A stretch of 34,162 bases of DNA, taken from Escherichia coli (GTDB lineage: Bacteria; Pseudomonadota; Gammaproteobacteria; Enterobacterales; Enterobacteriaceae). The DNA lies in the NCBI RefSeq assembly GCF_003334315.1, contig NZ_QOWR01000050.1, one strand, 5' to 3'. The notes under the pieces were generated by a model. The model did not search any database. It saw nothing but the letters and a program-made list of their open reading frames with translations, and was not told the DNA's origin. Positions 13,403 through 20,910 of this stretch are shown here, one piece after another; within the stretch, counting starts at the first letter, position 1, and every line of letters starts with the position of its first letter. Made by a program: the position numbers and the translations under genes.

Positions 13403-13417
13403 AACACGAATCACATT
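13403..13417 (-). promoter_or_regulatory. PaaX operator box in the paaA promoter region
   Basis: Reverse complement AATGTGATTCGTGTT matches the 15-bp PaaX consensus WWTRTGATTCGYGWT (recalled from the literature) at every position; lies 42 bp upstream of the paaA start. Confidence 0.6.
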
Positions 13418-13587
13418 GCTTTATGAAAGTTACACAGTGGTTAACTAAAATCACAAATTTTGTATGTTTGAACTGTGACGGATTTCGCACCCTATTTTTA
13501 TAACTCATTATTTATCAGTGCATTAATGTTTTTAGTAGTTGATATACAGATCGCATAGTTAACATTTCGTTAAAATACGCCTTGCCT

Positions 13588-13602
13588 TTTATGATTCGTG
13601 AT
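13588..13602 (+). promoter_or_regulatory. PaaX operator box in the paaZ promoter region
   Basis: TTTATGATTCGTGAT matches WWTRTGATTCGYGWT at every position; lies 44 bp upstream of the paaZ start, in inverted orientation to the paaA-side box. Confidence 0.6.
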
Positions 13603-15691: not shown

Positions 15692-15703
15692 TCGGTGAAT
15701 GAA

Positions 15704-15732
15704 GGGCAACGGCGAATAGTTGCCCTTTTATT
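15704..15732 (+). terminator. Rho-independent terminator of paaZ
   Basis: GGGCAAC (15704-15710) / GTTGCCC (15719-15725) stem with an 8-nt loop, followed by TTTTATTT. Confidence 0.7.
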
Positions 15733-15808: not shown

Positions 15809-15845
15809 TGGCACACCTGCCAAACAACTTGGCAGGTGCAGGCAA
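15809..15845 (+). promoter_or_regulatory. Candidate FeaR activator site in the tynA promoter (two TGNCA-N8-AAA-type direct repeats, 21 bp apart)
   Basis: TGGCA-cacctgcc-AAA at 15809-15824 and TGGCA-ggtgcagg-CAA at 15830-15845; the motif is the FeaR recognition pattern as I recall it from the literature. Confidence 0.5.
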
Positions 15846-15938
15846 TCCCCTTTACATCAGTGCTGATAATGTGAACCTGACTAAACCGCCCACAGAGCGC
15901 GGTTGCTAACAAGAACACAACATCTGACGAGGTTAATA

Positions 15939-18212
15939 ATGGGAAGCCCCTCTCTGTATTCTGCCCGTAAAACAACCCTGGCGTTGGCAGTCGCCTTAAG
16001 TTTCGCCTGGCAAGCGCCGGTATTTGCCCACGGTGGTGAAGCGCATATGGTGCCAATGGATAAAACGCTTAAAGAATTTGGTGCCGATGTGCAGTGGGAC
16101 GACTACGCCCAGCTCTTTACCCTGATTAAAGATGGCGCGTACGTGAAAGTGAAGCCTGGTGCGCAAACAGCAATTGTTAATGGTCAGCCTCTGGCACTGC
16201 AAGTACCGGTAGTGATGAAAGACAATAAAGCCTGGGTTTCTGACACCTTTATTAACGATGTTTTCCAGTCCGGGCTGGATCAAACCTTTCAGGTAGAAAA
16301 GCGCCCTCACCCACTTAATGCGCTAACTGCGGACGAAATTAAACAGGCCGTTGAAATTGTTAAAGCTTCCGCGGACTTCAAACCCAATACCCGTTTTACT
16401 GAGATCTCCCTGCTACCGCCAGATAAAGAAGCTGTCTGGGCGTTTGCGCTGGAAAACAAACCGGTTGACCAGCCGCGCAAAGCCGACGTCATTATGCTCG
16501 ACGGCAAACATATCATCGAAGCGGTGGTGGATCTGCAAAACAACAAACTGCTCTCCTGGCAACCCATTAAAGACGCCCACGGTATGGTGTTGCTGGATGA
16601 TTTCGCCAGTGTGCAGAACATTATTAACAACAGTGAAGAATTTGCCGCTGCCGTGAAGAAACGCGGTATTACTGATGCGAAAAAAGTGATTACCACGCCG
16701 CTGACCGTAGGTTATTTCGATGGTAAAGATGGCCTGAAACAAGATGCCCGGTTGCTCAAAGTCATCAGCTATCTTGATGTCGGTGATGGCAACTACTGGG
16801 CACATCCCATCGAAAACCTGGTGGCGGTCGTTGATTTAGAACAGAAAAAAATCGTTAAGATTGAAGAAGGTCCGGTAGTTCCGGTGCCAATGACCGCACG
16901 CCCATTTGATGGCCGTGACCGCGTTGCTCCGGCAGTTAAGCCTATGCAAATCATTGAGCCTGAAGGTAAAAATTACACCATTACTGGCGATATGATTCAC
17001 TGGCGGAACTGGGATTTTCACCTCAGCATGAACTCTCGCGTAGGGCCGATGATCTCCACCGTGACTTATAACGACAATGGCACCAAACGCAAAGTCATGT
17101 ACGAAGGTTCTCTCGGCGGCATGATTGTGCCTTACGGTGATCCTGATATTGGCTGGTACTTTAAAGCGTATCTGGACTCTGGTGACTACGGTATGGGCAC
17201 GCTAACCTCACCAATTGCTCGTGGTAAAGATGCCCCGTCTAACGCAGTGCTCCTTAATGAAACCATCGCCGACTACACTGGCGTGCCGATGGAGATCCCT
17301 CGCGCTATCGCGGTATTTGAACGTTATGCCGGGCCGGAGTATAAGCATCAGGAAATGGGCCAGCCCAACGTCAGTACCGAACGCCGGGAGTTAGTGGTGC
17401 GCTGGATCAGTACAGTGGGTAACTATGACTACATTTTTGACTGGATCTTCCATGAAAACGGCACTATTGGCATCGATGCCGGTGCTACGGGCATCGAAGC
17501 GGTGAAAGGTGTTAAAGCGAAAACCATGCACGATGAGACGGCGAAAGATGACACGCGCTACGGCACGCTTATCGATCACAATATCGTGGGTACTACACAC
17601 CAACATATTTATAATTTCCGCCTCGATCTGGATGTAGATGGCGAGAATAACAGCCTGGTGGCGATGGACCCAGTGGTAAAACCGAATACTGCCGGTGGCC
17701 CACGCACCAGTACCATGCAAGTTAATCAGTACAACATCGGCAATGAACAGGATGCCGCACAGAAATTTGATCCGGGCACGATTCGTCTGTTGAGTAACCC
17801 GAACAAAGAGAACCGCATGGGCAATCCGGTTTCCTATCAAATTATTCCTTATGCAGGTGGTACTCACCCGGTAGCAAAAGGTGCCCAGTTCGCGCCGGAC
17901 GAGTGGATCTATCATCGTTTAAGCTTTATGGACAAGCAGCTCTGGGTAACGCGTTATCATCCTGGCGAGCGTTTCCCGGAAGGCAAATATCCGAACCGTT
18001 CTACTCATGACACCGGTCTTGGACAATACAGTAAGGATAACGAGTCGCTGGACAACACCGACGCCGTTGTCTGGATGACCACCGGCACCACACATGTGGC
18101 CCGCGCCGAAGAGTGGCCGATTATGCCGACCGAATGGGTACATACTCTGCTGAAACCATGGAACTTCTTTGACGAAACGCCAACGCTAGGGGCGCTGAAG
18201 AAAGATAAGTGA
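15939..18212 (+). CDS. tynA: Periplasmic copper/topaquinone primary amine oxidase TynA, 757 aa
   Basis: Signal peptide MGSPSLYSARKTTLALAVALSFAWQAPVFA and the topaquinone precursor motif NYDY (…TVGNYDYIFDW…). Start trimmed from the track's 15903 to the ATG at 15939, which has a GAGG site. Confidence 0.9.
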   Translation: MGSPSLYSARKTTLALAVALSFAWQAPVFAHGGEAHMVPMDKTLKEFGADVQWDDYAQLFTLIKDGAYVKVKPGAQTAIVNGQPLALQVPVVMKDNKAWVSDTFINDVFQSGLDQTFQVEKRPHPLNALTADEIKQAVEIVKASADFKPNTRFTEISLLPPDKEAVWAFALENKPVDQPRKADVIMLDGKHIIEAVVDLQNNKLLSWQPIKDAHGMVLLDDFASVQNIINNSEEFAAAVKKRGITDAKKVITTPLTVGYFDGKDGLKQDARLLKVISYLDVGDGNYWAHPIENLVAVVDLEQKKIVKIEEGPVVPVPMTARPFDGRDRVAPAVKPMQIIEPEGKNYTITGDMIHWRNWDFHLSMNSRVGPMISTVTYNDNGTKRKVMYEGSLGGMIVPYGDPDIGWYFKAYLDSGDYGMGTLTSPIARGKDAPSNAVLLNETIADYTGVPMEIPRAIAVFERYAGPEYKHQEMGQPNVSTERRELVVRWISTVGNYDYIFDWIFHENGTIGIDAGATGIEAVKGVKAKTMHDETAKDDTRYGTLIDHNIVGTTHQHIYNFRLDLDVDGENNSLVAMDPVVKPNTAGGPRTSTMQVNQYNIGNEQDAAQKFDPGTIRLLSNPNKENRMGNPVSYQIIPYAGGTHPVAKGAQFAPDEWIYHRLSFMDKQLWVTRYHPGERFPEGKYPNRSTHDTGLGQYSKDNESLDNTDAVVWMTTGTTHVARAEEWPIMPTEWVHTLLKPWNFFDETPTLGALKKDK

Positions 18213-18269: not shown

Positions 18270-19769
18270 TTAATACCGTACACACACCGACTTAGTTTCA
18301 CACCAACCGTCCAGCCAGTCGGGGCCAAAATCACGGCCCGTTCCTGACTGCTTCATCCCACCAAACGGTAAGTTAGCGTCAATTAAGGTATGGCTGTTTA
18401 CCCACACCGTCCCTGCCTGTAAGCGATCGCTATATTCCAGAGCCTGGGAGAGATTTTGCGTCCAGACACTGGCAGTTAAGCCATATTCCGTGTCGTTTGC
18501 CAGTTGTAACGCCTCTTCTCCATCCGCTACTCGCACCAGGTTTACCACCGGACCAAACACCTCTTCACGAGTTAAGCGCAATTTAGCATCGGGATTTACC
18601 ACCAGCGTTGGCGCAACATAATACCCCTCTCCGGCTGGTCCATTCGACCCGCGAATCAGCTCTGCTTGCTGTGCCTGCGCATCGTCGAGGAATGAACACA
18701 CTTTGTCGCAGTGCGCACGAGAAACCAAAGGGTTAATCTGTGCAACAGGTGACATCCCCGGTCCCACTTGCAACGATTTTACCGCCTGCTCAAATCCACT
18801 AACCAGCGTGTCAAACAACGGCGCTTCAATATAAATTCGCGAACTGGCGGCGCATACTTGCCCTTGATTCAGGAAGCTTCCGGTCATCAAGCCTTCAATA
18901 ACCCATTGCGGATCAGCATCTTTTAATACAATTGCCGGGTTTTTACCGCCCAGTTCCAGCGTTACACGCGTTAAGTGATCAGCAGCAGTTCTGGCAATAC
19001 CTTTTCCCGTCGCGGTTGAACCGGTAAAACTGATTTTCGCAACATGAGGATGTGACGTCAGGGCCGCGCCGCATACAGCACCTGACCCGGTGACGACATT
19101 AAAAACGCCATCAGGGATACCAGCCTCGCTGGCCAGTTCCGCCACGCGCAACATCGTCAGTGGCGTGGTTTCCGAAGGCTTAATCACGATTGAACAGCCT
19201 GCTGCCAGTGCTGGCATCACCTTCCACATACCAATCATCAACGGAAAGTTCCATGGCACAATTCCCGCCACTACGCCAACCGGCTCTTTACGCGTCCAGG
19301 CCTGATAACGCGCCCCCTGGGGTAAGGGAATCGACAAGTCCAGCGTTTTACCCGCGATTTTGGTCGTTAACCCGGCGGTATAACGCATCCAGTTCAGCGT
19401 ACAGCCCACTTCAAAAGCACGGGAAATGGCAATTGACTTGCCTTGCTCCAGGGTTTCCAGTTGCGCCAGCTCCTCACTGTGCTGCTCCACCAGATCAGCA
19501 AAACGTAGCAGAATACGTTCACGCTCTGCGGGTAATCGCCCGGCCCAGCGACGCGAGACAAAGGCCCGCCAGGCAGACATGACTGCGTTATCTACATCCG
19601 CTTCGTTGGCATCAGCAGTAGACGCAATTTCTTGCCCGGTGGCCGGATCAAAGATCGCCAACCGTTTTTCACTTTGTGCGGGGCCAGGACGACCATCAAT
19701 ATAAAGACCGTGTTGACGATCGAGAAACTGTTGGACCTGGCTTAATACTGCTACATGCGGCTCTGTCAT
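18270..19769 (-). CDS. feaB: Phenylacetaldehyde dehydrogenase FeaB, 499 aa
   Basis: Aldehyde dehydrogenase motifs ELGGKNP and catalytic Cys GQVCAASS. Start is at the second of two adjacent Met codons (the track gives 500 aa from 19772). Confidence 0.9.
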
Positions 19770-19829
19770 CACTTTTCCTTATTATTTACCCAGTGTGATT
19801 TCAGTGTACGCAGCGACAAGAAAAGTCAC

Positions 19830-19866
19830 TTTTTTCGCTGTGACATTCGCTTTGTCAGCTGTGACA
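19830..19866 (-). promoter_or_regulatory. Candidate FeaR activator site in the feaB promoter (two TGNCA-N8-AAA direct repeats, 21 bp apart, read on the minus strand)
   Basis: Plus strand shows TTT-N8-TGACA at 19830-19845 and 19851-19866, i.e. TGTCA-N8-AAA twice on the feaB-coding strand. Confidence 0.5.
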
Positions 19867-20004
19867 AGCTCCGCAAATCGTGACAATAACCGCTTATGTC
19901 TCTATGCCTGACAAGACTTATTTCCTATAGTCAGGCTCATTAGCTTCGTTTATTGCAACACAAATGCAACAATAAAAATACATTTCACAGAGCGAAAACG
20001 TGCC

Positions 20005-20910
20005 ATGAACCCCGCAGTGGATAATGAGTTTCAGCAATGGCTTTCCCAAATCAATCAGGTATGCGGAAATTTTACCGGACGCCTGCTGACTGAGCGTTAC
20101 ACGGGTGTACTGGACACGCATTTTGCCAAAGGACTAAAGCTGAGTACCGTGACAACCAGCGGGGTGAATTTATCCCGCACCTGGCAGGAAGTAAAAGGCA
20201 GCGACGATGCCTGGTTTTACACCGTTTTTCAGCTTAGTGGTCAGGCAATAATGGAGCAGGATGAGCGTCAGGTGCAGATTGGCGCTGGCGATATTACGTT
20301 ACTCGATGCCTCACGCCCCTGTTCGCTTTACTGGCAGGAGTCTTCTAAACAGATTTCATTACTTTTGCCACGCACTCTGCTGGAACAATATTTTCCCCAT
20401 CAAAAACCTGTCTGCGCAGAAAGACTGGACGCTGACTTACCCATGGTGCAACTCAGTCATCGCCTGTTACAGGAGAGCATGAATAATCCGGCACTTTCTG
20501 AAACAGAAAGTGAAGCTGCGCTACAGGCGATGGTGTGTCTGCTGCGCCCGGTACTTCATCAGCGGGAATCTGTTCAACCTCGTCGTGAACGTCAGTTTCA
20601 AAAAGTGGTTACGTTGATAGACGATAATATTCGCGAAGAGATATTACGCCCGGAGTGGATAGCCGGAGAGACAGGTATGTCAGTACGTAGTTTGTACCGA
20701 ATGTTTGCCGATAAAGGTTTGGTAGTCGCGCAATATATTCGTAACCGTCGTCTCGATTTTTGTGCAGATGCGATTCGCCATGCCGCAGATGATGAAAAAC
20801 TGGCAGGCATCGGCTTTCATTGGGGATTTTCTGACCAGAGTCATTTTTCAACGGTATTTAAGCAACGCTTTGGGATGACGCCAGGCGAGTATCGACGTAA
20901 ATTCCGCTAA
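20005..20910 (+). CDS. feaR: AraC-family transcriptional activator FeaR, 301 aa
   Basis: 301-aa protein with a C-terminal AraC-type helix-turn-helix (…RSLYRMFADKGLVVAQYIRNRRLDFCADAI…FSDQSHFSTVFKQRFGMTPGEYRRKF); divergent from feaB. Confidence 0.9.
   Translation: MNPAVDNEFQQWLSQINQVCGNFTGRLLTERYTGVLDTHFAKGLKLSTVTTSGVNLSRTWQEVKGSDDAWFYTVFQLSGQAIMEQDERQVQIGAGDITLLDASRPCSLYWQESSKQISLLLPRTLLEQYFPHQKPVCAERLDADLPMVQLSHRLLQESMNNPALSETESEAALQAMVCLLRPVLHQRESVQPRRERQFQKVVTLIDDNIREEILRPEWIAGETGMSVRSLYRMFADKGLVVAQYIRNRRLDFCADAIRHAADDEKLAGIGFHWGFSDQSHFSTVFKQRFGMTPGEYRRKFR

Follow-up and report, generated by a model that had tools for sequence, protein, structure and literature searches.

Paired direct repeats in the feaB-feaR spacer of Escherichia coli very probably form the FeaR operator of the feaB promoter

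We analysed a 34,162-nucleotide stretch of Escherichia coli DNA (hereafter the window), which corresponds to the paaZ-tynA-feaB-feaR-ydbLH-ldhA region of the chromosome and which, over the 2.8 kb around the site described below, shows 100% identity to many complete E. coli genomes. RefSeq places paaZ and tynA on the plus strand, feaB on the minus strand, feaR on the plus strand, ydbL, ynbE and ydbH on the minus strand, and ldhA on the plus strand. The presumed target gene, feaB, encodes phenylacetaldehyde dehydrogenase and occupies 18270-19769 on the minus strand according to the RefSeq annotation of genomes with 100% identity; its annotated start is the ATG at 19769, and the open reading frame list extends it to a GTG at 19772. 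Divergent from it across a 235-bp spacer lies feaR (20005-20910, plus strand), the gene of an AraC-family activator; the gene assignments of an earlier note on this DNA proved correct. The FeaR protein is identified by an NCBIfam equivalog (NF007243, 504.9 bits against a cut-off of 199) and by the Pfam domains AraC_binding_2 (PF14525) and HTH_18/HTH_AraC (PF12833, PF00165), and the double AraC-type helix-turn-helix (PF12833 plus PF00165) is found in FeaR and in all orthologues listed. TynA is likewise confirmed by NCBIfam (1634 bits against a cut-off of 1278), and its gene starts at 15939. Just past the stop codon of paaZ, a hairpin at 15702-15727 combines a perfect 9-bp stem, AAGGGCAAC / GTTGCCCTT, with a following TTTTATTT; it is probably the intrinsic terminator of paaZ, which would insulate the tynA promoter from read-through.

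Within the feaB-feaR spacer, 61 bp upstream of the feaB ATG, lie the two repeats to which the earlier note had drawn attention. The plus strand reads TTT-N8-TGACA at 19830-19845 and again at 19851-19866, exactly as had been described, and the proposed 21-bp spacing of the corresponding TGTCA-N8-AAA units on the feaB strand was recovered independently by a repeat search, which returned a 20-nt direct repeat (19826-19845 and 19847-19866) of 80% identity with a start-to-start distance of 21 bp. On the minus strand, the distal unit TGTCACAGCTGACAAA (19866-19851) and the proximal unit TGTCACAGCGAAAAAA (19845-19830) each match TGNCA-N8-AAA with 0 mismatches, and between them a conserved 5-bp linker, GCGAA (19846-19850, minus strand), sets the 21-bp register. 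The single unit is not enriched in the window, where 13 matches to TGNCA-N8-AAA stand against an expectation of 7.74 +/- 2.87 and 5 of 100 shuffles reach 13. The composite of two units joined by a 5-bp linker, allowing at most one mismatch, occurs twice against 0.02 expected, a count reached by none of 100 shuffles, and its only matches in the window lie upstream of feaB (0 mismatches) and of tynA (15809-15845, 1 mismatch). Since the single unit is unenriched and the composite is enriched, the signal resides in the paired and phased arrangement and its conservation, not in the short motif. What all four units of the two promoters have in common is short, namely TG.CA plus AA.

The match upstream of tynA bears out the proposal that the two promoters share one architecture. 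On the plus strand, TGGCACACCTGCCAAA-CAACT-TGGCAGGTGCAGGCAA (15809-15845) forms a pair of TGNCA-N8-(A/C)AA units in the same 21-bp register and the same orientation, its one mismatch being a proximal CAA in place of AAA, and at both promoters the units are oriented toward the downstream gene. This pair is conserved in E. coli, two species of Pseudocitrobacter, Trabulsiella and Enterobacter cloacae, and in other taxa the proximal unit shows a conserved CAAA one base further out than the motif position. The promoter-like spacing recurs as well, with TAATGT (15867-15872) again located 21 nt beyond the proximal unit and GATAAT (15865-15870) as an alternative hexamer. No divergent regulator gene lies beside the tynA pair, and in Klebsiella, Raoultella and Kluyvera tynA is unlinked. 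A perfect 10-nt inverted repeat, CACCTGCCAA / TTGGCAGGTG (15814-15823 and 15829-15838), spans both E. coli tynA units; it probably arises merely from the recurrence of the TGGCA and CAAA boxes, because its arms diverge in other taxa without compensation.

To follow the site across Enterobacteriaceae, we assembled feaB-feaR loci from taxa whose FeaR is 64-82% identical to the E. coli protein: a divergent E. coli, two species of Pseudocitrobacter, Pluralibacter, Kluyvera, Enterobacter cloacae, Raoultella, Klebsiella oxytoca, Scandinavium, Trabulsiella, an Enterobacteriaceae isolate, and a relative with a 71% identical FeaR. A scan of contigs with a single protein gave 4 usable loci, and the remainder came from protein searches with contig look-ups. 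The divergent arrangement of feaB and feaR is kept in all loci collected, and the spacer aligns without gaps from 19876 to 19827. The earlier note had suggested checking the conservation of both sites in this family: at feaB, 19830-19866 ranks first among all 37-bp windows of the spacer in the 11 non-redundant taxa compared, and at tynA the pair is kept in 5. Invariant columns make up 25 of the 37 positions inside 19830-19866 and 41 of 198 elsewhere in the spacer (Fisher p = 4.6e-8). In the distal unit, the invariant columns are 19866-19859 (TGTCACAG), 19856 (G) and 19852-19851 (AA); the linker is gapless in every taxon, with columns 19849-19846 invariant and 19850 kept in 8 of 11; and the proximal unit has invariant TG.CA, GA at 19836-19835 and AAAA at 19833-19830. 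The extended consensus on the feaB strand reads TTTGCGG..cTGTCACAG c-n-G-n-c-a-AA gCGAA TGtCAcAGaGA-n-AAAA gcg.

A relaxed composite, TG.CA-N8-[AC]AA-N5-TG.CA-N8-[AC]AA, was then searched on both strands of 201,452 bases, comprising the window and 14 loci. It was found in the feaB upstream regions of the window and of 13 of the 14 loci, the fourteenth (L006) being an unrelated Chryseobacterium match, and in the tynA upstream regions of the window and 6 loci, which are all the sequences that include such a region; outside the feaB and tynA upstream regions, these 201,452 bases contained no match. The 21-bp register is identical in the window and in all 13 feaB loci. Of the 3289 complete E. coli genomes carrying the site region, 3288 show at least 99% identity over the 111 bp that surround the site. 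The locus itself is variable within the species, as indicated by genome counts and by insertions: the 2.8-kb feaB-feaR query found any match in 4202 of 5426 complete E. coli genomes and at least 80% coverage in only 3258, and an IS3-family transposase interrupts feaR in some complete genomes (e.g., NZ_CP147009.1 and NZ_CM184335.1; see also PMC4951805).

The geometry downstream of the repeats is equally constant. In 14 of 14 feaB sequences, exactly 21 variable nucleotides separate the proximal unit from TA(C/G)ACT, after which come 6 nucleotides and an invariant A. We read the hexamer, TACACT in the window (19803-19808, minus strand) and TAGACT in most other taxa, as the candidate feaB -10 element, 5 of its 6 columns being invariant, and the A at 19796 (minus strand), 7 nt past the hexamer, as the predicted transcription start. 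Assuming a 17-bp spacer, the -35 position would be occupied by AAGTGA (19826-19831, minus strand; consensus AAGCGC in other taxa), which bears no resemblance to TTGACA, and a consensus scan of 19700-20080 returned no sigma-70 consensus promoter, as fits an activator-dependent promoter. With TA(C/G)ACT taken as the -10 element and 19796 as +1, the proximal unit would extend from about -49 to -34, centred at -41.5 with a 2-bp overlap of the -35 position, and the distal unit from about -70 to -55, centred at -62.5, which is how class II activator sites of the AraC/XylS type are laid out.

Other conserved sequence blocks share the spacer. On the minus strand at 19952-19983, roughly 20-50 bp upstream of the feaR ATG, the conserved block ATGTATTTTTATTGTTGCATTTGTGTTGCAAT contains TGTTGC repeats at 11-bp intervals and has exactly the sequence of the three-repeat ArcA site given for feaR at U00096.2 1445329-1445360 (PMC3798270); feaR has been reported to be directly repressed by ArcA (Park et al. 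2013, PMC3798270). A second block, GA.TATA.GAAAGAA (19918-19932, minus strand), reads TTCTTTC.TATA.TC on the plus strand, where TATAGT (19926-19931) is a possible feaR -10 hexamer, without a recognisable -35 element; Park et al. 2013 list feaR as 'no TSS' (PMC3798270). We also considered and rejected a third FeaR unit at 19885-19870, whose TGTCAC lies 19 bp upstream, which has no AAA box and which is conserved in some lineages only. A third copy of GTGACAA..CCGC, which reads TATTGTCAC on the minus strand, is present at 19880-19893 at a distance of 19 bp from the distal unit; it has no A-rich box, and its conservation is limited to E. coli, Pseudocitrobacter, Pluralibacter, Scandinavium and one further lineage. 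Matches to a NAC site, ATA-N9-TAT, carry one mismatch at best, and none falls inside 19830-19866. Elsewhere in the window, the divergent paaZ-paaA spacer holds the only perfect matches to the PaaX operator (13403-13417 and 13588-13602) together with a CRP-like site, TGTGACGGATTTCGCA (13474-13489, 1 mismatch), an arrangement which we take to match the published control of the paa promoters.

Several other explanations of the repeats were weighed. That they arose by chance, serve as a PaaX operator or form a structured RNA element is an idea that might be entertained given the unenriched single unit and the adjoining paa cluster, and we regard it as negligible: the composite is expected only 0.02 times, the conservation has a p value of 5e-8, the PaaX operator WWTRTGATTCGYGWT finds no match at up to 3 mismatches in 19770-20004, and the region gives no Rfam match at E values up to 1, with folding z-scores of -0.21 and -1.30. 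It is also very improbable that the element is a palindromic operator bound by a symmetric dimer, as might be read from the 6-bp inverted repeat inside the E. coli distal unit (TTGTCA-N4-TGACAA, 19867-19852) and from the perfect 10-nt inverted repeat at tynA (CACCTGCCAA-N5-TTGGCAGGTG). The direct-repeat columns are invariant, whereas the inverted half at 19857-19853 is unconserved, columns 19857 and 19855 being essentially random (majority 3 of 11 and 4 of 11), and the tynA arms change without compensation, for example with CTGACA opposite TGGCAG. Autoregulation, in which the repeats would act mainly on feaR and not on feaB, has somewhat more in its favour, since the site lies inside the shared 235-bp divergent spacer and a plus-strand TGACA-N8-AAA (19862-19877), with a conserved CAAA, points toward feaR. 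Yet both full units point toward feaB, keep a constant distance of 21 nt to a conserved -10-like hexamer on the strand of that gene, stand more than 135 bp away from the start codon of feaR, and recur in the same orientation and spacing at tynA, where there is no divergent regulator gene. We therefore consider a primary action on feaR improbable, with a side effect of the element on feaR being possible.

The likeliest of the alternatives concerns CRP. Directly upstream of the distal unit lies a conserved TTTGCGG block (19871-19877, minus strand; columns 19876-19873 invariant), which could represent either an inverted CAAA box or the right-hand part of a CRP-like site. Together with the distal unit it forms, on the plus strand, TGTGACAAGCTCCGCA (19860-19875), which has 2 mismatches to TGTGA-N6-TCACA and overlaps the distal unit, and it also completes a dyad, TTTG-N7-TGTCA-N7-CAAA (19877-19851), that embeds the distal unit and is absent from the tynA promoter. 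Read as a CRP site, this sequence would place feaB and/or feaR under catabolite control, alongside or in competition with FeaR. Its left half TGTGA is perfect, nearly all 11 taxa have (C/T)CGCA as its right half, and the same TCGCA right half is seen at 13474-13489, the strongest CRP-like match of the paaZ-paaA spacer. Its centre at 19867.5 would fall at -71.5 relative to the predicted start of feaB, where class I sites lie, and Zeng & Spiro reportedly proposed CRP control of feaR. Against this, matches with 2 mismatches are common (17 distinct ones in the 34-kb window), the left half is inseparable from the FeaR TGTCACAG box, a bound CRP dimer would cover part of the distal FeaR unit, the literature searched yielded no CRP binding data for the feaB-feaR spacer, and the proximal unit, the 21-bp direct repeat and the tynA pair would be left unexplained. 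A CRP site at this position thus seems rather unlikely, and we retain it, doubtfully, as an additional function and not as a replacement for FeaR. With the same reserve, the TTTGCGG arm could make the distal unit dual-use, either as a class I CRP site (-71.5) or as an inverted FeaR unit for feaR autoregulation. If the CRP version held, CRP and FeaR would compete or cooperate at feaB, and either version would offer a reason, at the level of the sequence, for differing induction of feaB and tynA under carbon or nitrogen limitation; in the work of Zeng & Spiro 2013, feaB was reportedly induced under carbon and not nitrogen limitation, and tynA under both.

Taking these observations together, we estimate a probability of about 0.9 that 19830-19866 is the FeaR operator of the feaB promoter. 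Weighing against it are the shortness of the sequence common to the feaB and tynA units, the CAA of the proximal tynA unit, the overlap of the distal unit with a CRP-like sequence beside the TTTGCGG block, for which the simple model does not account, and the location in a control region shared by two divergent genes, where an effect on feaR is possible. The proposal that FeaR controls both promoters likewise appears well supported by the paired site, its conservation, the fixed geometry, the identity of FeaR and the literature. FeaR binding data locating the feaB site elsewhere would have contradicted the earlier note; Zeng & Spiro 2013 (J Bacteriol 195:5141) reportedly describes the opposite, a TGNCA-N8-AAA FeaR motif with two copies in each of the tynA and feaB promoters, the FeaR site being said to have been defined by genetic, biochemical and computational means. 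Physical binding by FeaR and loss of activation upon mutation of the site are reportedly described there too. Organism, genes and motif being the same, we take the feaB pair analysed here to be that site. Because the repeats match the FeaR site reportedly published in 2013, the site is one already described, correctly re-identified, and our result is a confirmation rather than a discovery; the wording of the earlier note mirrors the published motif, and its basis was probably recall plus a reading of the sequence. In U00096.2 coordinates, by a mapping derived from the ArcA site, the operator lies at about 1445446-1445482. What is added here is the extended consensus cTGTCACAG-N5-AAA-gCGAA-TGtCAcAGaGA-N-AAAAgcg, the invariant 21 nt to TA(C/G)ACT, and the conservation in 11 taxa.

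In the AraC family, as for AraC at I1-I2 and XylS at Pm, each monomer recognises a pair of boxes separated by roughly one helical turn, and two monomers sit on head-to-tail units 21 bp apart on a single face of the DNA, with the promoter-proximal monomer contacting RNA polymerase at -35. The conserved columns of the FeaR pair fit this reading, since they comprise the TGTCACAG box, an A-rich box 8 bp further on, and an invariant linker that fixes the register. We infer that each 16-bp unit (TGTCACAG-N5-AAA, then GCG) would be bound by one FeaR monomer, whose two AraC-type helix-turn-helix motifs would contact the TGNCA box and the A-rich box, respectively, in neighbouring major grooves. As the units are arranged head to tail and 21 bp correspond to two helical turns, a FeaR dimer would lie on one face of the DNA, and the proximal FeaR would recruit RNA polymerase as a class II activator, through a predicted contact at -35. 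FeaR activates tynA and feaB (PMC4640556), and phenylacetaldehyde is listed as a FeaR effector (PMC5540944). Activation would require the aromatic aldehyde that TynA makes from phenylethylamine, tyramine or dopamine. In published data, deletion of tynA lowers feaB 39.8-fold during growth with phenylethylamine, as would be expected if the product of TynA were the co-activator. Through the same architecture at tynA, one regulator would induce both the amine oxidase and the aldehyde dehydrogenase.

With FeaR, TynA and FeaB, E. coli and related gut bacteria can draw nitrogen or carbon from phenylethylamine, tyramine and dopamine. Biosensors that combine FeaR with the tynA promoter now detect neuroactive amines and tryptophan metabolites (PMC11542736). 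Promoter engineering should benefit from the exact operator, the wider consensus and the fixed distance to the -10 element, all of which also make it easier to extend the regulon annotation to Klebsiella, Enterobacter, Kluyvera, Raoultella and related genera.

The feaB operator can be compared with three known systems. With the AraC I1-I2 site at araBAD, the FeaR pair shares direct-repeat half-sites and a divergent regulator gene, and would also share binding by a dimer of monomers with two helix-turn-helix motifs each and overlap with the -35 position; it differs in that no O2-type distal looping operator was found at feaB, and in that the CRP site at ara adjoins I1 without overlap, whereas the CRP-like sequence at feaB overlaps the distal unit. 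The ArcA box at feaR resembles the FeaR pair in being a conserved direct-repeat site in the same intergenic region, but it belongs to another protein, consists of TGTTA-like repeats 11 bp apart, serves the repression of feaR and does not overlap the FeaR pair. The XylS sites at the TOL Pm promoter are two TGCA-N6-GGNTA direct repeats 21 bp apart, the proximal one overlapping the -35 position. The FeaR boxes differ in sequence (TGNCA-N8-AAA versus TGCA-N6-GGNTA), the FeaR effector would be an aromatic aldehyde and not a benzoate, and FeaR carries an AraC_binding_2 N-terminal domain. What the two systems have in common is an AraC/XylS-family activator acting on an effector-dependent promoter through bipartite, head-to-tail units in a 21-bp register, with an overlap of about 2 bp with the -35 position that is predicted in the case of feaB.
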